From an uncultured Clostridia bacterium (GTDB lineage Bacteria; Bacillota; Clostridia; TANB77; CAG-508): DNA of 64,000 nt. The first letter of the stretch is position 1, and each line of letters opens with the position of its first letter. Made by a program: the position numbers and the translations under genes. The notes below the pieces were generated by a model, which searched no databases, was not told the origin of the DNA, and worked only from the letters and a program-made list of their open reading frames with translations. Location of the stretch: positions 18,450 to 82,449 of the forward strand of contig CALXQV010000017.1 of the NCBI GenBank assembly GCA_944390535.1, written 5' to 3'. Shown one piece after another: positions 3,725-54,945 of the stretch.

Positions 3725-4255
3725 TTACGACAAAAAACGACATACAACAATACTTGTAATAATACCAACAATATCTGCCGTTAGTGCTGCTATTAACACA
3801 AACCTTGTTTTTTTTATCTTTATACTTGAAGAATATATCGCTATGGTATATAACGTTGTTTCTGTTGCCCCCATAATAACAGCTGCCATTATCCCTATTT
3901 GACTATCGACTCCAAAATTTTTCATGATATCTGTTGCAACTGCTATGGAACTACTTCCTGATATTGGTCTTAAGAGTGCTAAAGGCATAATTTCTGTTGG
4001 AAAATTTACTATATTTAATAATGGTTCTACTAATTTAATCGCTATATCTATCACGCCTGAACTTCTTAAAGCCCCCACTGCCAAAAATAATCCTATCAGT
4101 GTAGGAAAAATATTAATAACAATTTTTATACCATCTTTTGCTCCTTCAATAAATTTATCAAAAACTTCCTTTTTTTCTATAACACCATATATGACAACTA
4201 ATAATATTATTAATGGCATTGCCAAACTAGATAAATAATTCATTATCTCAATCAT
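3725..4255 (-). CDS. spmB: Spore maturation protein B (nucleoside-recognition domain membrane protein)
   Basis: 176-aa polytopic membrane protein whose start overlaps the spmA stop (ATGA). It has the family motif LLRPISGSSSIAV. Confidence 0.8.
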   Translation of the reverse strand: MIEIMNYLSSLAMPLIILLVVIYGVIEKKEVFDKFIEGAKDGIKIVINIFPTLIGLFLAVGALRSSGVIDIAIKLVEPLLNIVNFPTEIMPLALLRPISGSSSIAVATDIMKNFGVDSQIGIMAAVIMGATETTLYTIAIYSSSIKIKKTRFVLIAALTADIVGIITSIVVCRFLS

Positions 4256-4857
4256 ATTTTCTCCCTTTTATTAGAATAATAAATAAGTAATTTTGTTACA
4301 GTTATTCCTGCAATTGCTGCACAAACGGTTGCAATCCATACTGGAACAATAATAGCAGTTGGATTTTCTGCTCCTAATGAACTCCTTATTGCAATAATTG
4401 TCGTTGGAACTAATTGGATGGATGCTGTATTTAATACAATTAGCATAATCATAGAATTACTTAATTCTTTCTTATTTTTATTTTCCTTTTGTAAAGTGTC
4501 CATTGCTTTTAATCCTAATGGTGTGGCTGCATTTCCCAATCCTAAAATATTTGCTATCATATTCATTGAAATTTCATTTTGTGCTTTTGGATTTTCTTTT
4601 ATTTCTGGAAAAAGCATTTTTATTACTGGTTTAAGTAATTTATTCATTATTTTCATGATGCTAGTGTTTGCCGCAACATTAATAATTCCACTCCATAGGC
4701 ACATTGTGCCTAACATGGTTATACTTAAACTTACTGCACTTTCTACACTATCAAATATACTAGTATTTAAATTTTGTAAATTGCCTGAAAAAATTGCGTA
4801 TGAAAATGATATTATTATGAAAATTGGCCAAACTAAATTTAACATATTTACCACCAA
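4252..4857 (-). CDS. spmA: Spore maturation protein A
   Basis: Contains the LFPEI...NILGLGNAATPLGLKAM motif typical of SpmA. It ends with a TGA that overlaps the spmB ATG. Confidence 0.8.
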   Translation of the reverse strand: MVVNMLNLVWPIFIIISFSYAIFSGNLQNLNTSIFDSVESAVSLSITMLGTMCLWSGIINVAANTSIMKIMNKLLKPVIKMLFPEIKENPKAQNEISMNMIANILGLGNAATPLGLKAMDTLQKENKNKKELSNSMIMLIVLNTASIQLVPTTIIAIRSSLGAENPTAIIVPVWIATVCAAIAGITVTKLLIYYSNKREKI

Positions 4858-8157: not shown

Positions 8158-8832
8158 TTACATTCTACATATTTTTAAAACTAAACACCGCAAATCTTCT
8201 AACTCTTTTTCAAATTCAGACTGTATTTTTAAAAAAAATTCTTTTATTTTGTTCCAGTCATATTCCACATAAGTCTTTGGTAATATTTCTTCTTCAGCAT
8301 CTTCAAAATAAGTCAATCCCATAACTATATTTACATAATTTATATGATTTCCACATTTTTTTATTAACCCTTCTGCTAATTGAGATATAGAAATATGACA
8401 TTTTTGAATAATATGATATAAATCAAAAAAATCCTTTTTTGAACCTCTTCCTCCAATTGCAATTATTTTCATAATTGCTATATCTAAAATACTTGCCATT
8501 TTCAATTTTGGCATCTCTTCTACTTTTATCATATCATCTACTAAAAGATTTGGGTAATAAAAAAAGCTAACTTGAACACCATCTAATATTAAATCACATG
8601 TTCCTTTTTGATTTTGTTGTATTTCAATTTTTCCTATTTTTTCTAACTCTTCGATAATGACCTCATTATTAAATGGTTCAGATACGCAAAAATCAAAATC
8701 AAAAGATTCTCTTAATTCTAACTGTAATGATAAAGCAGTTCCTCCTACCATATAATAGTTTTGTAAGCTAATGGTATCTGTTATCTTTTTTAACAATGCA
8801 TATCTATTTTTATCTAATATATTCCAATACAT
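8158..8832 (-). CDS. Nucleotidyltransferase AbiEii/AbiGii toxin-family protein
   Basis: The motif MVGGTALSLQLELRESFDFDF matches the AbiEii nucleotidyltransferase core. The start overlaps the stop of the upstream small ORF. An in-frame CGG lies 9 codons before the stop (8188-8190). Confidence 0.65.
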   Translation of the reverse strand: MYWNILDKNRYALLKKITDTISLQNYYMVGGTALSLQLELRESFDFDFCVSEPFNNEVIIEELEKIGKIEIQQNQKGTCDLILDGVQVSFFYYPNLLVDDMIKVEEMPKLKMASILDIAIMKIIAIGGRGSKKDFFDLYHIIQKCHISISQLAEGLIKKCGNHINYVNIVMGLTYFEDAEEEILPKTYVEYDWNKIKEFFLKIQSEFEKELEDLRCLVLKICRM

Positions 8833-9128
8833 TAATAATTCTCCCTTCCAAATTCATAATTTAATGCTTTACTTGTTTTATAATACATCATTTGTTCTTT
8901 TTTTAGATGAAATTGTTGTCTTAAATAATTCGCAACCAAAGGATTTAAATTTCTACTTTTTTTTGCTACTTCTTCAATATCTGTCTTATTATATGTTTGT
9001 TTTATCCATTTTATTGTTTTTAAATTGCCATAGCAATACAGTCTAGATATAATATATCTTTTATTTTTTTCTAAATCTAATTTTTCAAATTCTACATCCC
9101 AAAAATACTTTTTAAATTCTGTTGGCAT
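8832..9128 (-). CDS. Small partner ORF of the AbiEii-like gene (putative antitoxin or regulator)
   Basis: 98 aa, translationally coupled to the downstream gene through a TAATG overlap. Family not confidently recognised. Confidence 0.4.
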   Translation of the reverse strand: MPTEFKKYFWDVEFEKLDLEKNKRYIISRLYCYGNLKTIKWIKQTYNKTDIEEVAKKSRNLNPLVANYLRQQFHLKKEQMMYYKTSKALNYEFGRENY

Positions 9129-14196: not shown

Positions 14197-15054
14197 TTAT
14201 GTAATTTCTTTCATGTTATTTATTTGTTTCTTAGCAATCTCATATCCAATCTCATATAACTCTTCTATCTTATCCATATCTAATAATCCTATTTTTTCTG
14301 TGGGTATTTCTAATAAATAATCTGTTCCTTCCCATTCATAATTTGCCAATTCATTAGATAGTAAACCAATAGACCTCGATGCCACATCAATAATATTCAT
14401 GCAACACGCTTTATCAAATTTTTCTTTAAATACAACACTAATGACTTTATCTGTGCCAATTTCTTTTAATTCTTTCCATGGTGTATTTTCTCGAATTCCT
14501 CCATCTATTAAACTTGTATGATTAAATTCACAAGGTGAAAATACCACTGGATAGCTACAACTTGCCCTTACTGCCTTTCCTATATTTATATGGTTTATAA
14601 AAATTGTATTAGATAAGTATCTCTTATCATTTTGATAGGAAGTAAAGCAAGTAACTTTTCCATTATATAGATTAACTGATGGAATCACTAAAGGAAAACG
14701 AATTTCTGAAATATCTGTTATATGTTTCTCCTTGGCAATATCATTAATTAATTTTTCAATCTCTTTTCCAGAATTTAATCCATCTATCATAATTTTTTGT
14801 TTAAAAACTAATCCATACATTAATTTAATAATATTCCAAAAATCAATGTATTTTATTTTCTTACAATATTTTTTAAATATTGTATAAATTTCATCAGAAC
14901 GAAAACCCATAGCATACAAACTTGCTACAATGCTCCCTGAAGATGTCCCTGCTATACTATCTATCTTTATCTTTTCCTCTTCTAATGCTTTCAATACTCC
15001 TATATGTGCTGCTCCTTTTACGCCTCCTCCAGATAAACTTAATCCTAAATTCAT
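14197..15054 (-). CDS. Patatin-like phospholipase
   Basis: [16 protein letters not shown] oxyanion motif and a GTSSGS nucleophile elbow. I prefer the ATG at 15054 ([11 protein letters not shown]), preceded by AGGTGA. The track ORF extends to 15081. Confidence 0.85.
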
Positions 15055-15203
15055 ACAATCACCTAATATTACTATATGCACTCTCTTCTGAAAACGATAT
15101 TTATTTTTTAATATCCTATTCTTTCATAATTTTAATTTTGAAGTCTCTTATTATTGCTTACTTCTTTTTTTTATGGTATCATTTACAAGAAAGGATTATT
15201 ACT

Positions 15204-15884
15204 ATGGATAAAAATTATTATGAAATATTAGAAGTTGATAAAAATGCGTCACCTGAAATTATAGAAAAAGCCTATAAAACTTTAGCTAAAAAATATCATC
15301 CTGATTTACACGATGCTACTCATAAAAAAGAAGCGGAAGAAACATTTAAAATAATTAATGAAGCTTATGAAACTTTGTCAAATCCTGATCAAAGGTCTTT
15401 ATATGATCAAAAATTAGAAGATACAGTTATATCTCAAGATAAATATGATGAAATGTATGAACAAAATCAAGTTTTGAAAAATAAGTTAAATGATTTACAA
15501 CAACATATGTATAATGAACATAGCTCTTACAAAGAGGGAAAACAATTTGAAAAAGCTCATCAAAATAGTGCACCTAATTTTAATCAATTTTCTCAGGATG
15601 AACAATACCAAAAGAACTTAGAATATGAGCAACAAATGAACCAAGCAAAAAATCAAGCTTATTACGATGCTTATATACAAGATTTAAAGAATAGAGGCTA
15701 TAAAATACGATATAAAAAATCTTTCTCAGACTATGTGAAATCACTTATTGCTCTTATAATTGTCATTTTTATTTTATTTATTGTATTTCAGCTTCCTTTT
15801 GTAAAAAATTATTTTATTGAATTATACCATACAAATTCTGTTTTTAGAGTTATTGGAAATATTTTTATAAATCTATTTCATTAA
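15204..15884 (+). CDS. J-domain (DnaJ-like) protein with a C-terminal TM anchor
   Basis: [34 protein letters not shown] is a canonical J-domain with HPD. The 94-codon upstream extension in the track overlaps the patatin gene and looks non-coding. Confidence 0.75.
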
Positions 15885-43860: not shown

Positions 43861-44071
43861 TTTTCCACAGTTTTTCTATTTGTTTTCCACAATTTAATTT
43901 TTTTTTTTATATTTGTATTGATTTATTTTATATAATTTTGTTTTGATATTAAAAGTATATATAATATTTATTTTTTATTGAAAATACTTTAATTTTTGTT
44001 CGATAAAAAAATGAACTTTATTACAAGTTTATTACAATATTATCAACATTTGTGGATAACTTTGTGGATAA
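43861..44071. promoter_or_regulatory. DnaA-box cluster upstream of dnaA (oriC left part and dnaA promoter region)
   Basis: TTTTCCACA at 43861-43869 and 43883-43891. TGTGGATAA at 44051-44059 and 44063-44071. Confidence 0.7.
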
Positions 44072-44094
44072 CTTTTTAAAGAAAGGATGAGGAA

Positions 44095-45447
44095 ATGGAT
44101 ATTGATAAAGAAGAATTAGTTGCAAAAATAAAAGAACTACTAAAACCAGAAGTAACAAAAATCTCTTATGATACTTGGATTTTACCCTTAGACATAAGAA
44201 GCATCGATGGTGATAATATTGTTTTTACAACAATTTCTGAATTCCAAAAAGATTTCATAGAAAATAAATATAGAAGCTTAATCTTTAATACTTTACGCTA
44301 TATAACAAATAAAGATTGGACATTTTCTGTTGTTGATTTATCAAAAGAAGAACCAAATGATGGAGTTGTTATAAAAGATAATTCCAAAAATACTTCTTCT
44401 GAAGAAGTAGAAATGAACAAATCAACTTTAAATCCAAAATATACTTTCGAAACTTTCGTAGTAGGAAATAGTAACCGTTTTGCACATGCTGCTGCGTTAG
44501 CCGTAGGAAATGAACCTGGAAAAGCCTATAATCCACTTTTTCTATATGGTGGTGTTGGTTTAGGAAAAACGCACTTAATGCACGCTATTGGAAATCGTAT
44601 TTTACAAAACAATAATCAAACTAACGTATTATACGTTACTTCCGAAAAATTTACCAATCAATTAATTAATGCCATAAAAGATAATAAAAATGAAGTTTTT
44701 CGTAATAAATATAGAAGTATCGATGTCCTTTTAATAGATGATATTCAATTTATTGCAGGAAAAGAAAGAGTTCAAGAGGAATTTTTCCATACATTCAATT
44801 CTTTATATGAAGATGGAAAACAAATTATTATTTCAAGTGATAAACCACCAAGAGATATACAATTTTTAGAAGATAGATTAAAATCTAGATTTGAATGGTG
44901 ATTACTTGCAGATATTTCTTGTCCAGATTATGAAACACGTTTAGCAATTTTAAGAAAAAAAGCTCAAGATGAAAATATTTTAATTGATGATTTTATATTA
45001 TCTGATATTGCCAATAAAATTGATTCTAATATTCGAGAATTAGAAGGTGTGTTCAATAAAATTGTTGCAAGAGCTTCTTTGATACATAGCCCTATCACCA
45101 TTGAACTTGCAGAAAATATCATTAATGAATTCAAATATGAAAATGAAAAAGTCATTTCTTGTGATTTTATCAAAGAAACGGTTGCAAAATATTTTAGCAT
45201 TAATAAAGATGATTTATCAGGAAATAAGCGTTCTAATGATATTGCTTTTCCTAGACAAATTGCTATGTATCTTTGTAGAGAAATTGCTAATATGTCATTT
45301 CCTCAAATAGGAATTGATTTTGGGGGAAGAGATCACTCAACAGTTATGCATGCTTGTAAAAAAATTGAAAAAGAAGTAAAAGAAAAAAATAATACAAAGT
45401 TAATTGTGGATAGTGTGAAAAACATTATCATAAATGGAAAACAATAG
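44095..45447 (+). CDS. dnaA: Chromosomal replication initiator DnaA, single reading frame interrupted by an in-frame TGA at 44899-44901
   Basis: ORFs 44095..44901 and 45049..45447 are in the same frame. Homology continues straight through the stop: SRFEW-TGA-LLADISCPDYETRLAILRKKA, compared with the B. subtilis [27 protein letters not shown]. Walker A GGVGLGKTH and the C-terminal DNA-binding domain (FPRQIAMYL, GGRDHSTV) are present. Confidence 0.9.
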
Positions 45448-45547
45448 TAACAATGTACATTGACAAGAACTTTTTAAAATTTGTGTTTGAGGAAAAATTT
45501 GTTCTAAAAAAGATATTCTTTCTCTTCTTACGGAATAGCGAAAAAGA

Positions 45548-45713
45548 ATATCCACAGCTTCCTGTTAATAAGCTGTTAAAAATTTGTTTATAACTCACTT
45601 TTACACAATTGTAACAAAAAGATGTGGATTATTTTTTAAGTTTTCCACTGAATTATAAACAGTAATTTTACTAGGGATTGTAGATATCAACATAGTTTTC
45701 CACAGTTTCCACA
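45548..45713. promoter_or_regulatory. oriC DnaA-box cluster in the dnaA-dnaN intergenic region
   Basis: ATATCCACA 45548-45556, TGTGGATTA 45623-45631, TTTTCCACT 45641-45649, TTTTCCACA 45696-45704 and GTTTCCACA 45705-45713, followed by AT-rich DNA before dnaN. Confidence 0.7.
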
Positions 45714-45769
45714 ATACCTAATACTATTACTACTAAAAATATTATATATATTTATAAGGAGGAATCGCC

Positions 45770-46888
45770 ATGAAGATTGTTTGTTATAAAGACAAACTAA
45801 TTAAAGCTTTGAATTCCGTAGTAAAAGGTGTTGCTTCTAAAACAACAATGCCTATACTAGAAGGAATTCTCATACAAACAAATGATAATGAAATAAAATT
45901 AACAACCTATGATTTAGAAATAGGTATAGAATACATAATGGAATGTGATGTAGAAGAACAAGGAAGTACAGTCGTTAATGCAATTATGTTTAGTGAAATT
46001 ATTAGGAAATTACCAGATACAGAAATAAAAATCTCATTAAATGCCAATAATTTATTGGAAATAGAATGTGAAGGATCTTTATATAAATTAGCTACTATGA
46101 ATCCTGAAGAATTTCCAGAATTACCAAAGATAGAAATTGAAAATTCTATTGAAATTGATCAAAATGTATTAAAAAATATGATTAGAAGAACTATATTTGC
46201 AGCTAGTACAGAGGAAAGTAGACCAATTTTTACAGGTTGTCTATTTGAAATTGAAAATAATAAATTAAGTTTAGTGGCAGTAGATGGATTTAGATTAGCA
46301 TTAAGGAAAGTCTTTTTGACAAAACAAAGTAATGATTTTAGTGCAGTTATTCCAGGAAAAACATTAATAGAATTAAATAAAATTATTACAGATTCTTTTG
46401 AACCAATAAAAATAGGGGTTTCGAAAAATCAAGCATTATTTGAAATGGATAATTGCAAAATTGTCACAAGAGTCTTAGATGGAGAGTTTTTAAATTATAA
46501 AAATGTTATTCCAAATACTTGGGAAACAAGAATTAAAGTAAATAAAAATAATATACAAGATAGTTTTGAAAGGATTAATTTAATTTCTTTATCTTCAGTG
46601 GAAAAAGAAAAAAAATATCCTGTAAAAGTACAAGTAGATATAGGAAAAGTAACAATTTTATGTACAAATCAAACAGGAGATGCAAAAGAAGAATTATATG
46701 TTTCAACAGAAGGAAAGAACTTAGAAGTAGGATTTAATCCAAAATATTTTCTAGATAGTTTAAAAGCAATTGATGATGAAGAAGTTTATATAGAATTTGG
46801 AAGCAGTATATCTCCATGTTTAGTGAAATCAGTAGAAAATAATGATTATGTATATATGATTTTACCAATTAGATTAAAAGAAGATTAA
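45770..46888 (+). CDS. dnaN: DNA polymerase III beta sliding clamp
   Basis: 372 aa in a conserved position, preceded by an AAGGAGG Shine-Dalgarno. Typical clamp motifs (PILEGILI, VDGFRLA). Confidence 0.95.
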   Translation: MKIVCYKDKLIKALNSVVKGVASKTTMPILEGILIQTNDNEIKLTTYDLEIGIEYIMECDVEEQGSTVVNAIMFSEIIRKLPDTEIKISLNANNLLEIECEGSLYKLATMNPEEFPELPKIEIENSIEIDQNVLKNMIRRTIFAASTEESRPIFTGCLFEIENNKLSLVAVDGFRLALRKVFLTKQSNDFSAVIPGKTLIELNKIITDSFEPIKIGVSKNQALFEMDNCKIVTRVLDGEFLNYKNVIPNTWETRIKVNKNNIQDSFERINLISLSSVEKEKKYPVKVQVDIGKVTILCTNQTGDAKEELYVSTEGKNLEVGFNPKYFLDSLKAIDDEEVYIEFGSSISPCLVKSVENNDYVYMILPIRLKED

Positions 46889-46924
46889 AGGTGGAAGTAT
46901 TTCTGCCTTTAATATTTTTGGTAA

Positions 46925-46956
46925 TTATCCACTTTTTATGAAGAAATTGTGGATAA
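46925..46956. promoter_or_regulatory. Pair of DnaA boxes downstream of dnaN
   Basis: TTATCCACT at 46925-46933 and TGTGGATAA at 46948-46956, in convergent orientation. Confidence 0.5.
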
Positions 46957-46959
46957 AAA

Positions 46960-47640
46960 AGAAATAGAAAACACATAAACTTTAAATATATTAAAAGAAA
47001 AAATAGAAATCAAATTTAAATAAAATCGAAAAAAATAGAAAAATAAAGAAAAAAAAAGGAAAAAAAATATAATAAAGAAATAAAAATAAAATTTAAAAAA
47101 TGAATTTTCAATAAAAAGAAAAAAATAGAATAAATTAGAAAAAAATAGATAAAAAAAGAATTAGGAAGAAAAAAGAAATTTTAAAATATATTAATATAAA
47201 AATAAAAATCATAAAAAAGAAAATAAATAAAAAATATTAATAAAAAACATTAATAAAAAACATTAATAAATAAATTAAATAAAATAAAATTTTATTATCT
47301 GAAAAACTAATAAATAATAAAAATAAAAAAATATATAAAAAATAATTATTTTTAATAAATCATAAAAAAATAGCAAAAAAACAAAACACGAAAATCAAAA
47401 ATAAGCCAATTTAATTTTTTATTAATATAATTTTATATCTAAAAAATAAAGAAAAAAGAAAATAAAATAGCAAAAATAAAAAAATAATGAAAAAAATAAA
47501 GCGTGAAAATAAAAAATAAGCCGATTTTATTTTTTAGCAATATAATTTTATAGTAAAAAATAAAAAGAAAATTAAAAAAAAATAGTAAAAAAAAGAAAAA
47601 AATAGAAATAAAAAGCAAATAAAAAAGAATAAAGTTATAC
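46960..47640 (+). repeat. About 680 nt of A-rich low-complexity non-coding filler with internal repeats between dnaN and recF
   Basis: Almost pure A/T with A far exceeding T on the plus strand. A 13-nt unit attaataaaaaac occurs about 3 times at 47235-47275. Two ~115-bp tandem units are at about 47383-47498 and 47499-47615 (..gaaaat.aaaaataagcc.att..attttt.a..aatataattttata..). Confidence 0.7.
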
Positions 47641-47656
47641 ACAAATGGAGAAGAAT

Positions 47657-48739
47657 ATGTGGATAAATAAAATAGAATTAAACAATTTTAGAAATTATGA
47701 AAAAGAAAGTATTGAATTAAATAAAAATTTAAATATATTTTATGGTGAAAATGCACAAGGAAAAACCAATATAATAGAAAGTATTTTTTTTAGTAGTATG
47801 GGAAAATCTTTTCGAGCCAAAAAAGATACAGAGGTAATTCAATTAGGAAAGAATAAAGCAGATATAGAAATATTTTTTGAAAAAATAGATCGATGTGGAA
47901 AAATAAAAATAGAGATAGGTAATAGAAAAAATATTTATTTAAATGGAATTAAATTAAAAAAATTAAGTGAATTATTAGGAAATATAAATGTAGTTATTTT
48001 TACAAAAGATGATATTCATATATTAAAAGGTGGGCCACAAAATAGAAGAAGATTTTTAGATATTATGATTAGTCAATTAAAACCGAATTATATGTATAAT
48101 TTAAATTTGTATTTAAAAACAATTGAGCAAAGAAATAATTATTTAAGACAAATTAGAGAAGAAAATAAAAATGAAGAATTATTAGATATTTGGGATGAGA
48201 AATTAATAGAATATGCTGACAAAATATATGAATATAGAAAATTATTTATGAAAAAAATACAAGAAAAAATAAAAAAAATTCACAAAGACATTACTGATAA
48301 TAAAGAAGAACTTTTCATTGAATATCATTCAGATTGCAAAAGTAAAGAAGAATATAGAAAACTTTTAAAAGAAAGAAGAAAATTGGATATTATTAAAGGA
48401 TATACAACAAAAGGAGTACACAGAGATGATTTTACCATATCCATCAATGATAAAGATTTAGGGACTTTTGGATCTCAAGGCCAGCATAGAACAGCTATTT
48501 TATCTTTAAGAATGGCAGAGTTAGATATCATATATGATGAAATTGGAGAATATCCCATCTTATTATTAGATGATTTTATGTCAGAGTTAGACGAAAAAAG
48601 AAGGAAACATTTATTAGAAAAAATTGAAAATATACAAGTAATTATTACTTGTACAGATAAAATAAAGCTTGAAAATAAAAATGTTTTAATATATAATGTA
48701 AAAGACGGAAAAGTAAGAAAAGAAAATCAAGATTTTTAG
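47657..48739 (+). CDS. recF: DNA replication and repair protein RecF
   Basis: MWINKIELNNFRNYE start, Walker A GENAQGKTN and LLLDDFMSELD. I prefer the ATG at 47657, preceded by GGAG, over 47645. Confidence 0.9.
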   Translation: MWINKIELNNFRNYEKESIELNKNLNIFYGENAQGKTNIIESIFFSSMGKSFRAKKDTEVIQLGKNKADIEIFFEKIDRCGKIKIEIGNRKNIYLNGIKLKKLSELLGNINVVIFTKDDIHILKGGPQNRRRFLDIMISQLKPNYMYNLNLYLKTIEQRNNYLRQIREENKNEELLDIWDEKLIEYADKIYEYRKLFMKKIQEKIKKIHKDITDNKEELFIEYHSDCKSKEEYRKLLKERRKLDIIKGYTTKGVHRDDFTISINDKDLGTFGSQGQHRTAILSLRMAELDIIYDEIGEYPILLLDDFMSELDEKRRKHLLEKIENIQVIITCTDKIKLENKNVLIYNVKDGKVRKENQDF

Positions 48740-50688: not shown

Positions 50689-50719
50689 AAAGGCAGATAA
50701 TATAATATTATCTGCCTTT
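50689..50719 (+). terminator. Hairpin terminator after gyrB
   Basis: A perfect 14-bp stem aaaggcagataata/tattatctgccttt with a 3-nt loop. Confidence 0.55.
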
Positions 50720-51510
50720 AATCAATAAAGCTAATAATAATCGTAGTTAAAACAAAAATACATAATTTTCAAATCTAACATATATTACTATATGAATAAA
50801 CTTTAAACCACATATTTTTATCAGTCACTCGATAATTAATACACTATCAACAACTAATTTCATCCTGTATAGGACTAGCGTTAATCATTAAATAATATAA
50901 GAATTATCTTAACTAAAATATATTACATATTATTTTGCTAAATCCACATAATCATATAAAAATAATAAAATAAAAAGATAGCATACAAACAAGTAATATA
51001 CTCACATCGCCAACATAGTATAATATAATAAAACACCATACTACATTTTTGTCCGAATTGTAATAAGCGATAAACACCTATTAAAATTCTTCGTTTAACT
51101 ATTATTAACCTTACATTTATAGTATAAACAAAAAAATAAAAAATATTCTAAAAAAATAATAAAAATAAAAATTAAAAAAGTAAAAAATATTTATATGATA
51201 AATAAAAAAATAAAATATATAAAAATAAATAAAATCAGATTTTTGAAAAATAAAAACATATAAATTAAATAAATAATAATGTTAATTAAATATAAAAAAT
51301 TATATAAATTAAAAATTAAATTAATTAAAAAAATTTTTTTTACAACGCTTTATTAATATAAAATTAAATTTAATTAAAAATAAATAATAAAAAATTATAA
51401 AAAAATAAATAATAATAATTTCAAAATAAAAGTCGAATTTTGTCAATGTATTTTTCTTGACAAAGTTTGTAAAATAATGTAAAATACGCAAAAAAGGAGA
51501 GTGATAAAAT

Positions 51511-52080
51511 ATTAAGAATAAAACTATACAAGAGTGGATACCAATAAAGCAAATTTATAATGGAGGTATTATAGAATTAGAAGATAATAGTTACATAAAA
51601 ATATTAGAGATTATTCCTATAAACTATAATTTAAAATCAGATCTAGAAAAAGAAGCAATTTTAAATTCATATAAAATTTTTTTAAAAACTTGCAATTTTA
51701 ATTTACAAATTTTAATTCAAAGTAACAAAGAAGATTTAAGTCATCATATTTCAAAAATAAGAAAAAATATTAATAAAAAAGAAAATAAATATTTAAAAAT
51801 ATTAACTGAAAATTATATTCAATATATTTCAAAATTAAATATTAGTAAAAAATCATCTTTAAAAAAGTTTTTTATCATTATTAAAAATAATCCCATAAAT
51901 AAAAAAGAAAAAAATATAGAAATAATAAAACAAGAATTAAATGAAAAATATTTAAAAATAAAAGAATGTTTATCTAGATGTGGAAACAAGGTATTTGTTG
52001 TAGATACAAAACAAGAAATTTTAAAAATATTTTTTTCATTTTTAAATACAAAAAAATATTCAAATAAAAATTATACTTAA
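51511..52080 (+). CDS. Homolog of the VirB4 N-terminal-like domain protein (paralog of 28871..30031), lacking a canonical start codon
   Basis: The frame is open from 51508 to the TAA at 52078 and is absent from the ORF track. It encodes ..KNKTIQEWIPIKQIYNGGIIELEDNSYIKILEIIPINYNLKSDLEKEAILNSYKIFLKTCNFNLQILIQS.., which aligns to the 386-aa T4SS protein. The only start candidate after the AAGGAGAG Shine-Dalgarno is ATT at 51511. Confidence 0.45.
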   Translation: MKNKTIQEWIPIKQIYNGGIIELEDNSYIKILEIIPINYNLKSDLEKEAILNSYKIFLKTCNFNLQILIQSNKEDLSHHISKIRKNINKKENKYLKILTENYIQYISKLNISKKSSLKKFFIIIKNNPINKKEKNIEIIKQELNEKYLKIKECLSRCGNKVFVVDTKQEILKIFFSFLNTKKYSNKNYT

Positions 52081-52093
52081 AGGAGGAGTTTAT

Positions 52094-53909
52094 ATAGAAT
52101 TAAAAAAATTATTTAATAAAAAAACAAAAAAAGAAAGATTAAAAATATTAGAGGGAAGTATATTTGAAAAAGATAAAATATCTGCAACATATATAAATTT
52201 TCAAAATCCCAATTATATAGAAATGGATTCTATGTATTATTCAGGAATAATCATAGTAGATTATTATAGAGAACAGACAGATATTATATTAAAAAGTATT
52301 ATTGAGAGTAATATAAATATCAATATATCTATATTTTATGAAAAACAAGATACATATAGAGTAATAAAAGAATTAACCTATCATATAGGAAATGTAGGAT
52401 TAGAGGCCAAAAGTGCTCATGAAAATAGACAAGATATAGATATTGTCACATCAACTTATGGGGATGCAAAATATATAAGAAGAGAAATGCAAGTAAATAA
52501 TGAAGAGATGTATTATTTATATACATATTTAATAGTATATGCAGAAAATAAAAATGAATTAGAATATCTTATTAATAAAGTAGAAGGTATTGCTCAAAGT
52601 AAAGGATTACAAACAAGAAGAGCAAATTTTAGGCAAGAAGAAATCTATAAAAGCTGTCTGCCTATCATGGAAAATGATAAATTAATAAAAAACATGGCGA
52701 AAAGAAATATATTAACCAGCAGTTTAATATCTACATATCCTTTTATTTCTTCAACGATTTTTGATGAAGAAGGTATTTTTATAGGAACAAATATATATAA
52801 TCAATCTCTAGTATTTATTGACAGGTATAATACAGAAAAATATAAAAATGCAAATATATGTATATTTGGGACAAGTGGAGCAGGAAAATCTTTTTATACC
52901 AAGTTATTAATATTAAGATATAGACTAATGGGGATCAAACAATATATTATTGATCCAGAAAGAGAATATGTAAGTTTAAGTAAAAAACTAATGGGAACTA
53001 GAGTAATTATCGGACCAAATTCTAATACCTATATTAATATATTAGATATAAGAAAAGAAAGTATAGAAGATGGAGAAAATGGATATCTAGCAACTAAAAT
53101 AGGAAAATTAATAGGATTTTTTGACTTGATTTTTGGAGAATTAAATGAAGAAGAAAAAGCTTTAATAGAAGAAAAATTGATTGAGACATATAAAGAAAAA
53201 AATATTAATTTTGATGATACATCCTTATATAAAAAAGAAAACAAAAAAAATATTTTTAAAAATCAAAAAGATATGCCAATTTTAGAAGATTTATATAATA
53301 TATTAAAAAAAGATAAAAAAACGGAAAAATTTGCGATAAAGTTAATTCCTTTTGTAAAAGGATCTATGAAGTTTTTTAACCATCAGTCCAATATAGAGTT
53401 AAAGAATGAATTAATCATTGCAGATATATATGAATTAGGAGAAGAAAATTTAAAATATGGTATGTATTTATTTACAGATATTTTCTGGGATAAGATTAAA
53501 GAAAATAGAAAAGAAAAAAAAGCAATTTATTTAGATGAAATATGGAGATTAATAGGAGTAACATCTAATAAAAATGTAGCAAGTTTTATATATAAGATAT
53601 TTAAAACAATTCGAAAATATGGAGGAAGTAGTGTAGCAATTACACAAGATATATCAGATTTATTCAGCTTAGAAGATGGAATTTATGGAAAAAGTATTCT
53701 AAATAATTCTAATATTAAAACGTTTTTCGCTTTAGAAGAAGAGAATATAAAAGTGTTATCAGAATATGCCAATTTATCTGAAAAAGAAAAAATAGAAATA
53801 AAATCTTTAAAAAGAGGAGAATGTTTAATGTTTGTAGGAGAAGACCATATATTAACTAAGATTGAATGTTCAGAAGAAGAATATGAAATTATAAAAGGAG
53901 AAAAAAAGC

Positions 53910-53917
<8 letters not shown>
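52094..53917 (+). CDS. VirB4-family ATPase, diverged paralog of 26915..28858, with a probable ATA start
   Basis: Walker A FGTSGAGKS, Walker B IYLDEIW and ITQDISDL. Homology to the other VirB4 extends upstream of the first ATG (52223). ATA at 52094 lies 7 nt after AGGAGGAG, and there is no ATG, GTG or TTG in frame between them. Confidence 0.65.
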
Positions 53918-54289
<372 letters not shown>

Positions 54290-54357
54290 TAAATAAAAAA
54301 ATATATAAATCAATTTATGTAATAAAAAAATGGATCCAATTAAGAAAAAATAATTAT

Positions 54358-54945
54358 ATGGAAAATAAAAATAATGTTATATTTCTTTTTGGAGAAAATA
54401 AAATAGATAAAAATATAGTAAGATTGTTAATTATAAAGAAATTAATAATAAAAAATAAAAAAATAATATTATTAAATTTAAAAAATTATAATATAAAAGA
54501 AAAAAATAAAAATAATAAAATAGAAAAATTAAATAAAATTAAAAATAAATATTATTTAAAAATAGATTATCATTTAAAAGAAAAAATAATAAATAAAAAT
54601 ATGAAGCAAATTATTAATATTAATAACATATTAAAAAATAAAAATAAATTTGTTAAAATAAAAATATTAAAAGAAATCATACGAAAATATAGTAAAAAGA
54701 ATTATTATATTATATTTTACATAGATGATAAAATAAAATATATAGAAAATAACTTAATTAATAAACAAAATAAATATTTAGCATTATTAGTATTAGAAAA
54801 TAATAAAAAAAATTTATTAAAATTAAATAAAAATTATAATAAAAAAATAAATTTAATAATTATAAATAACAAAAAAAATAATTTATCAAAATATTTTTAT
54901 CAAAATATTTTAAGAAATAAATTTAATAAAATCATATTTATATAA
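54358..54945 (+). CDS. Hypothetical Lys/Asn/Ile-rich protein
   Basis: 195-aa ORF of very low complexity. Coding status is uncertain. Confidence 0.25.
   Translation: MENKNNVIFLFGENKIDKNIVRLLIIKKLIIKNKKIILLNLKNYNIKEKNKNNKIEKLNKIKNKYYLKIDYHLKEKIINKNMKQIININNILKNKNKFVKIKILKEIIRKYSKKNYYIIFYIDDKIKYIENNLINKQNKYLALLVLENNKKNLLKLNKNYNKKINLIIINNKKNNLSKYFYQNILRNKFNKIIFI

Follow-up and report, generated by a model that had tools for sequence, protein, structure and literature searches.

An isolated in-frame TGA in dnaA of an uncultured gut Clostridia bacterium, probably a sequence error, and a candidate +1 frameshift site in the dnaA genes of its relatives

Introduction

Stop codons within the gene of the replication initiator DnaA are known from Escherichia coli, where conditional-lethal nonsense alleles of dnaA are kept by suppressor tRNAs and where defects of dnaA can be relieved by integrative suppression. 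A second setting is that of draft and metagenome-assembled genomes, in which sporadic nonsense or consensus errors appear as single-base changes that are private to one assembly and interrupt an otherwise canonical essential gene with no accompanying recoding signal.

Departures from the ordinary reading of a gene constitute another group of described systems. The programmed +1 frameshift site of the bacterial gene prfB is CUU-UGA-C. In the Ty1 site of yeast, CUU_AGG_C, a slippery Leu codon is followed by an Arg codon that is slow to decode, while the +1 sites of glass-sponge mitochondria consist of rare CGG_(A) codons, with a C inserted 5' of GGA (PMC5009743). UGA itself is read as Gly in genetic code 25 of the Absconditabacteria (SR1) and Gracilibacteria, in which it frequently serves as a sense codon and never ends a gene; these are the only bacteria known to have reassigned UGA to Gly, and the reassignment is accompanied by a tRNA-Gly(UCA) and the loss of RF2 (PMC8629427). 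In general, UGA reassignments arise where the GC content is low and UGA is rare (PMC8629427).

Herein, a stretch of 64 kb from the assembly of an uncultured Clostridia bacterium, termed the window, is described, in which dnaA is interrupted by one in-frame TGA. The window shares with the code 25 organisms a UGA at a conserved Gly position, a very AT-rich genome and a seldom used UGA codon; unlike them, it contains a single in-frame UGA among more than 15,000 codons and ends other genes with this codon, and its host is a relative of spore-forming Clostridia. As in the E. coli alleles, the stop lies in an essential initiator and would need a suppressor or an alternative replicon to be tolerated, but those alleles are laboratory constructs with a known suppressor, whereas neither a suppressor nor an alternative initiator was found in the window. 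With the sporadic errors of draft genomes the lesion has in common that one base is changed, in one assembly alone, within a canonical essential gene devoid of a recoding signal; it differs in being a substitution within an otherwise clean assembly. The programmed +1 sites of prfB, Ty1 and the sponges bear on the relatives only, many of which contain in dnaA a site of the same form as those of Ty1 and the glass sponges (PMC5009743). The TGA of the window is a substitution that leaves the frame unchanged, so that frameshifting cannot rescue it.

Host and relatives

The genomes closest to the window, one of them named Candidatus Scatovivens, are metagenome-assembled genomes of uncultured gut Clostridia whose hosts include rabbit and human, with GC contents of 22-26%. 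The window itself is very AT-rich (26.3% GC) and harbors sporulation genes (SpoIIR, Germane), which agree with a position among the Clostridia. The DnaA of the window shares 96-97% identity with its nearest counterparts, and the nearest dnaA DNA is only 89% identical, which indicates that the window represents a species separate from the relatives retrieved; the best GTDB match to its DnaA reaches only 90% amino-acid identity. Full-length DnaA homologues of 449-450 amino acids align with it from end to end at 93-97% identity. The protein collection searched held no exact match to the 268-amino-acid product, to the 132-amino-acid ORF downstream or to DnaN.

The origin region, which is organized as rnpA-rpmH / dnaA-dnaN-recF-gyrB, is syntenic with that of annotated relatives, and the syntenic genes neighboring dnaA have the same lengths as their counterparts there. 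Elsewhere in the 64 kb, neither frameshifts nor other visibly broken genes were observed.

The interrupted dnaA gene

The dnaA gene runs in a single frame from an ATG at 44095 to a TAG at 45445-45447 of the plus strand and thus comprises 450 sense-codon positions with one internal stop. In this frame, positions 44893-44904 read GAA TGG TGA TTA, and the TGA, codon 269, takes the place of the invariant Gly of box VII, which aligns with Gly289 of E. coli DnaA. An earlier sequence-only reading of this DNA had reported the TGA at this EWG site and homology that continues across it, and both observations hold: the two parts are DnaA in the same frame, and homologues align with them from end to end. 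A frameshift or a ribosome hop over the TGA was rejected, because the homology on both sides lies in one frame.

The product up to the stop would comprise 268 amino acids, and 181 codons follow it. Residues 1-268 match the Pfam profiles DnaA_N and Bac_DnaA, the latter at profile positions 1-157 of 162 (E = 8e-74), while residues 270-450 match Bac_DnaA_C (E = 1e-31) and also contain the AAA+ lid. For the mapping of individual residues, the DnaA of the window was aligned to that of E. coli K-12, in which the roles of box VII, the arginine finger, AID-2 and sensor 2 have been described (PMC5742627). The catalytic residues are conserved. Arg281 of box VII and Arg285, the arginine finger, correspond to R261 and R265 upstream of the TGA, whereas Leu290 of AID-2 and Arg334 of sensor 2 correspond to L270 and R314 downstream of it, together with domain IV. 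The sequence-only reading had assigned both the arginine-finger/sensor region and the DNA-binding domain to the part beyond the stop, which is correct for sensor 2 and domain IV and has to be amended for the arginine finger, which precedes it.

The identity of the gene as the dnaA orthologue is given by its three domains (DnaA_N, Bac_DnaA and Bac_DnaA_C), by the rpmH-dnaA-dnaN synteny, by a switch of GC skew and by DnaA boxes. The sign of the skew reverses at about 44-46 kb, and the four perfect DnaA boxes (TTATCCACA) of the window all fall within 44051-47666, in agreement with the intact oriC that the sequence-only reading had described. Boxes with one mismatch accompany the pair upstream of dnaA at 43861, 43883 and 44040, and genes for DnaD/DnaB-like and DnaI-like helicase loaders are present in the window. 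The spacer between dnaN and recF possibly belongs to a multipartite oriC or serves as the region where it unwinds; a comparable gap of 775-830 nt is found in the sister species L081 and L084. An ORF at 61567-62598 was considered as a second dnaA and rejected, as its match to Bac_DnaA is weak, an IstB/DnaI-type loader fits it better, and it adjoins a DnaB_2 (DnaD/DnaB-like) gene. The search of the 64 kb revealed neither a further dnaA nor another initiator.

Table 1. Coordinates of dnaA, its surroundings and genes ending in TGA within the window
Feature	Position	Strand	Remarks
Gate-domain (spmA-like) gene	4252..4857	-	ends with TGA in an ATGA overlap with a spmB-like gene
DUF4446 gene	34225..34746	-	ends with TGA in an ATGA overlap with the next start codon
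Two perfect DnaA boxes (TTATCCACA)	44051..44071	-	just upstream of dnaA
dnaA codons 1-268	44095..44898	+	domain I/II and most of the AAA+ core; Pfam DnaA_N, Bac_DnaA 112-268
dnaA 5' part, key residues	44095..44898	+	Walker A K158, Walker B D215/D216, box VII R261, arginine finger R265
In-frame TGA, codon 269	44899..44901	+	T at 44899 is G in all relatives
dnaA codons 270-450 and TAG	44902..45447	+	AID-2 L270, AAA+ lid with sensor 2 R314, domain IV helix-turn-helix
dnaA-dnaN intergenic region	45448..45769	.	one-mismatch DnaA boxes at 45548, 45623 and 45696
dnaN (beta clamp)	45770..46888	+	intact, 372 aa, length as in sister species
dnaN-recF spacer	46889 to about 47644-47666	.	gene-free, about 756 nt, A-rich; perfect DnaA boxes near its ends, at 46948 and 47658
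TraG/VirB4-like ATPase gene	52223..53917	+	ends with TGA in an 8-nt overlap (ATGCGTGA) with the next ORF

Other features of the window

Between gyrB and gyrA, about 8 kb (50700-58700) are inserted, with a GC content of 14-24% and a low-complexity, A-rich plus strand that includes a run of about 69 A at 54233-54301. This insert carries the TraG/VirB4-like ATPase gene (Table 1), small ORFs that belong to no family and a regulator of the HTH_3 type (57681-58016); in the sister species L081, TraC-like and TraG-P-loop genes likewise directly follow gyrB. A second type IV secretion/conjugation-like cluster occupies 21193-32614 of the minus strand, with a GC content of about 0.32 compared with 0.26 overall. 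It encodes two proteins of about 870 amino acids that match no family above the Pfam cut-off, a TraG-P-loop ATPase (26918-28858) and three tandem paralogues of the TrbC/VirB2 pilin (31044-32168), and its end is adjoined by a tRNA-Ser(GCT)/tRNA-Ser(TGA) pair at 32374-32614.

In addition, a gene for an AbiEii-family nucleotidyltransferase toxin and a DUF6922 gene, which overlap by one base at 8161-9128, likely form a toxin-antitoxin pair of type IV. A long plus-strand ORF (14922-15881) overlaps in its 5' region with a minus-strand gene for a patatin-like phospholipase (14200-15123); the real start of the ORF is probably well downstream of its first start codon, since its sole domain, DnaJ, covers residues 98-162.

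Conservation of codon 269 and selection on the downstream part

The presence of the same TGA in relatives would, according to the sequence-only reading, argue for programmed readthrough rather than a lesion; no relative has it. Codon 269 is GGA or GGG in ten GTDB species representatives and in seven contigs of the nearest sister species, so the single G-to-T change proposed in that reading, at 44899, suffices to account for the stop. Eleven metagenome contigs retrieved with a 26-nt pattern that left the critical base as N, all of them from other species, have G at this base. At the protein level, the position is Gly in 124 of 124 aligned homologues, and among the 328 columns that are invariant in them the window deviates at column 269 only. 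Because full-length forms would out-score truncated ones, the search was repeated with the 268-amino-acid product alone; no truncated DnaA of 268 amino acids occurred among its best 120 matches from 5.8 billion proteins, all of which were 390-461 amino acids long. The lesion is unique, isolated and unconserved, and the rest of dnaA is canonical.

Comparison with three relatives (dS 0.77-1.1) gave dN/dS values of 0.005, 0.009 and 0.023 downstream of the TGA, and higher values, 0.024-0.060, upstream of it. These ratios indicate that the third of dnaA after the TGA is under very strong purifying selection. A decaying pseudogene was rejected on account of the low values past the stop and of the lack of any further deviation at the 328 invariant columns.

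No hairpin was predicted 3' of the UGA: the 70 nt that begin with it fold at a minimum free energy of -5 kcal/mol versus -8.9 ± 2.5 kcal/mol for shuffled sequences (z = +1.57), which is worse than 195 of 200 shuffles, and nothing relevant was matched by Rfam between 43.4 and 47.7 kb. Programmed readthrough is not supported, as the stop is unconserved, lacks a 3' stimulatory structure and has no counterpart in 268-amino-acid forms. A literature search for nonsense or readthrough in dnaA returned only unrelated work on eukaryotic readthrough.

Lesions of other kinds were encountered in individual DnaA sequences of the clade. The top-scoring match, the NCBI protein P0001 (517 amino acids), contains an exact internal tandem duplication of 67 amino acids (FHTFNSLYEDGKQ...RKKAQDESII repeated), which is probably an assembly artefact; its interpretation as an alternative-code translation was rejected, since it is merely a relative with this duplication. 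Two forms known from single contigs, P0168 and P0196, go out of frame at the GGAAAAAC A-run. All three one-off lesions look like artefacts.

Usage of TGA and the genetic code

The other ORFs of at least 150 amino acids in the window contain no in-frame TGA in 15,485 codons, and the 845 Gly codons of the window ORFs of this size are all GGN (GGA 506, GGT 227, GGG 76 and GGC 36). Among ORFs of at least 100 amino acids, free-standing genes end in TAA (35) or TAG (9), and TGA is rare, accounting for 3 of 47 genuine gene ends once dnaA's own TGA is set aside. Four other ORFs of the window terminate at TGA, always within an ATGA or ATGNNTGA overlap with the start of the next gene and closely behind a Shine-Dalgarno-like sequence; the TGA-containing overlaps of the credible genes are located at 4252-4255, 30024-30031, 34225-34228 and 53910-53917. 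As a stop, TGA seems to persist only where gene overlap constrains the choice. In the sister species L084, yidD ends in GAT CCA TTA AAG TGA, while the same DPLK* end is closed by TAA in the window and in L081. The four ORF ends and the yidD of the sister species corroborate the earlier statement that TGA functions as a genuine stop in other parts of the window. The code is the standard one, and TGA is a stop in the genome and in the clade.

The only tRNAs encoded in the 64 kb are tRNA-Ser GCT and tRNA-Ser TGA, and no tRNA with a UCA anticodon occurs within this stretch. Among the ORFs of at least 90 amino acids in the 64 kb that were scanned with Pfam or annotated by synteny, prfB was not found. 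Genetic code 25 is not supported, because in-frame TGA does not recur at Gly positions and TGA is used as a terminator.

A candidate +1 frameshift site in the dnaA of relatives

In two relatives from different studies, L010 and L044, dnaA loses its frame at one shared alignment column, where, within the Walker A motif (GGVGL|GKT), a single extra C separates the Leu codon from the Gly codon that follows. The site reads GGC CTT C GGA AAA ACG in L010 (L010:496-506) and GGT TTA C GGT AAA ACT, that is UUA-C-GGU, in L044 (L044:3463-3470). The Walker A of the window (44554-44568) is without the extra base and reads GGT GTT GGT TTA GGA AAA ACG.

When the 160-amino-acid N-terminal product of L010 was used as a query, 33 protein clusters from about 129 contigs were obtained, with N-terminal identities from 100% down to 42%; the match list apparently holds proteins of up to about 1.75 times the query length and gives no ratio of shifted to intact forms. 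All shifted forms end in ...GGVGL-RKN(S/T)(F/L)NA(C/S)YW or similar, which is the out-of-frame reading of GKTHLMHAIGN. In three further lineages (L100-L104, L105-L108 and L109-L112), the extra C lies about 440-450 nt into dnaA, the site is CTT-C-GGR-AAA-AC in every case, and the only dnaA at rpmH-dnaA-dnaN is split into overlapping ORFs of 163-169 and 275-290 amino acids, the latter nearly all of 288-290. The DNA of these three lineages comes from independent ENA, NCBI and Logan samples, and the approximately 129 contigs derive from independent samples and assemblers.

The 0 frame codes up to the Leu, and immediately after the C the invariant GKTHLM is encoded in the +1 frame with synonymous variation (GGA/GGG/GGT, ACG/ACT, CAT/CAC and TTG/TTA), which implies that the coding constraint switches frame exactly at the extra C. 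The 0-frame codon at the shift site is always CGG, the rarest Arg codon of the clade, which accounts for 4 of the 552 Arg codons in the window and for none in the loci of most relatives; in L010 and L044, the CGG of the shift site is the sole one in long ORFs. In a neighbor-joining tree, shifted lineages are interspersed with intact ones, and L109 together with L010 forms the sister of the group that includes the window. A shift inside the A-run past the extra C was rejected, as L044 has a 0-frame TAA directly after the CGG and L105 possesses only four A's there. By these sequence comparisons, CUU-C-GGR in the Walker A of dnaA is a candidate for a programmed +1 ribosomal frameshift; dnaA is mentioned neither in a review of frameshifting (PMC5009743) nor in the GeneTack survey, which covers conserved frame transitions in prokaryotes.

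Explanations of the internal TGA

The TGA is probably a one-off G-to-T change in a GGA codon that is private to this assembly and arose as an error of the deposited sequence. Such an error could stem from base calling or consensus building, from a damaged-base artefact, or from a stray variant that the assembler fixed at thin coverage, and the living organism would almost certainly possess an intact dnaA of 450 codons, with Gly269 and ordinary decoding, beside an intact oriC. We infer the absence of the T from the cells from the essentiality of DnaA and from priors; the data are fitted equally by a sequence error and by a mutation too recent to have left any other trace. An error is favored over a real mutation, because a lethal allele cannot, as a rule, become the consensus of a population and because a miscall or damaged base in a read is far commoner than a new mutation. 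GGA is the commonest Gly codon of the window, so that many targets exist for a random G-to-T change to TGA. Against an error speaks that the rest of the window bears no signs of poor assembly, which would make a substitution error here a rare event. Oxidative damage is a recognized source of G-to-T artefacts, while the best-known Illumina motif bias after GG, by which T is miscalled as G, acts in the opposite direction and does not favor this error.

The alternative that survives best, although we regard it as rather unlikely, is a genuine and very recent nonsense mutation, which would leave a 268-amino-acid fragment devoid of the AAA+ lid, sensor 2 and the DNA-binding domain. A lineage of this kind would be a dead end or a minority variant, or it would be briefly sustained by a second initiator, for example that of an integrated conjugative element, or by trace near-cognate readthrough. 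The stop is, after all, contained in the sequence as given, the window otherwise looks well assembled, the intact downstream sequence fits a change too young for decay, and the two type IV secretion/conjugation-like clusters near oriC, at 21-32 kb and 52-54 kb, are what integrative suppression would presuppose, but no replication initiator was recognized among their genes. Several points oppose such a mutation: DnaA is essential, and the origin, the DnaA boxes and the helicase-loader genes have all been kept; a lethal allele cannot be the majority in the population behind an assembled consensus; the TGA is found in no other assembly of the clade; and neither a second dnaA nor another initiator was found in the 64 kb.

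It is considerably less probable that the UGA is decoded and full-length DnaA produced, be it by a strain-specific suppressor tRNA (UCA; Gly or Trp), by an incipient reassignment or by efficient natural readthrough. In E. coli, a U after UGA, as found here, makes a comparatively efficient termination context, which counts against decoding. The GC content of 26% and the rarity of TGA as a stop are the setting in which reassignments arise (PMC8629427), the stop occupies a Gly position as would befit its meaning in code 25, and sister lineages appear to tolerate another recoding event in dnaA, the conserved +1 site. These points are outweighed by the solitary in-frame TGA in more than 15,000 codons, by the use of TGA to terminate genes of the window and the clade, by its absence from every relative, by the lack of a UCA tRNA in the window and of structure downstream, and by the confinement of the known UGA-to-Gly reassignments to the Absconditabacteria and Gracilibacteria (PMC8629427). 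The narrower proposition of a genuine UGA that this single lineage translates as Gly or Trp, through incipient stop-codon capture or a strain-specific suppressor, is held to be very improbable.

A functional two-piece DnaA, composed of the 268-amino-acid N-terminal product and a separately initiated C-terminal product, is more improbable still: each half keeps its domains intact, but the first in-frame start past the stop is a GTG at 45049, 50 codons downstream, from which the product would be without L270 (AID-2) and R314 (sensor 2), and no relative is so organized at this position. Selenocysteine insertion is scarcely credible, as it has nothing in its favor except that UGA is the Sec codon, and it is opposed by the lack of a SECIS-like hairpin in the 70 nt, by the lack of an Rfam match and by the homologous residue, which is Gly in all 124 relatives and neither Cys nor Sec in any.

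The sequence-only reading had left three options, namely readthrough or suppression, a split or inactive DnaA, and a base-call error. With relatives free of the TGA, no stimulatory structure and no sign of an altered code, an error or a very recent lesion is favored.

Implications

Since it is probably an error in the sequence, and otherwise no more than a transient lesion, the TGA of dnaA is of little consequence by itself. For annotation, the gene is a dnaA with a suspect base at 44899, and there is no evidence of recoding or of DnaA-independent replication. Were the UGA indeed translated, a UGA reassignment would have been observed at its very beginning in a Firmicute, in an essential gene, and in an AT-rich clade whose sister lineages would already depend on a non-standard decoding of dnaA.

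Far more interesting is the +1 site of the relatives, which, unlike the TGA, is conserved over deep divergence, reproduced, defined by a precise motif and marked by a change of the constrained frame at the site itself, and which thus illustrates the features that recoding of dnaA in this clade can be expected to display. If confirmed, it would constitute a programmed +1 frameshift inside the Walker A of a bacterial replication initiator, and it would tie the synthesis of DnaA to the supply of a rare tRNA-Arg.
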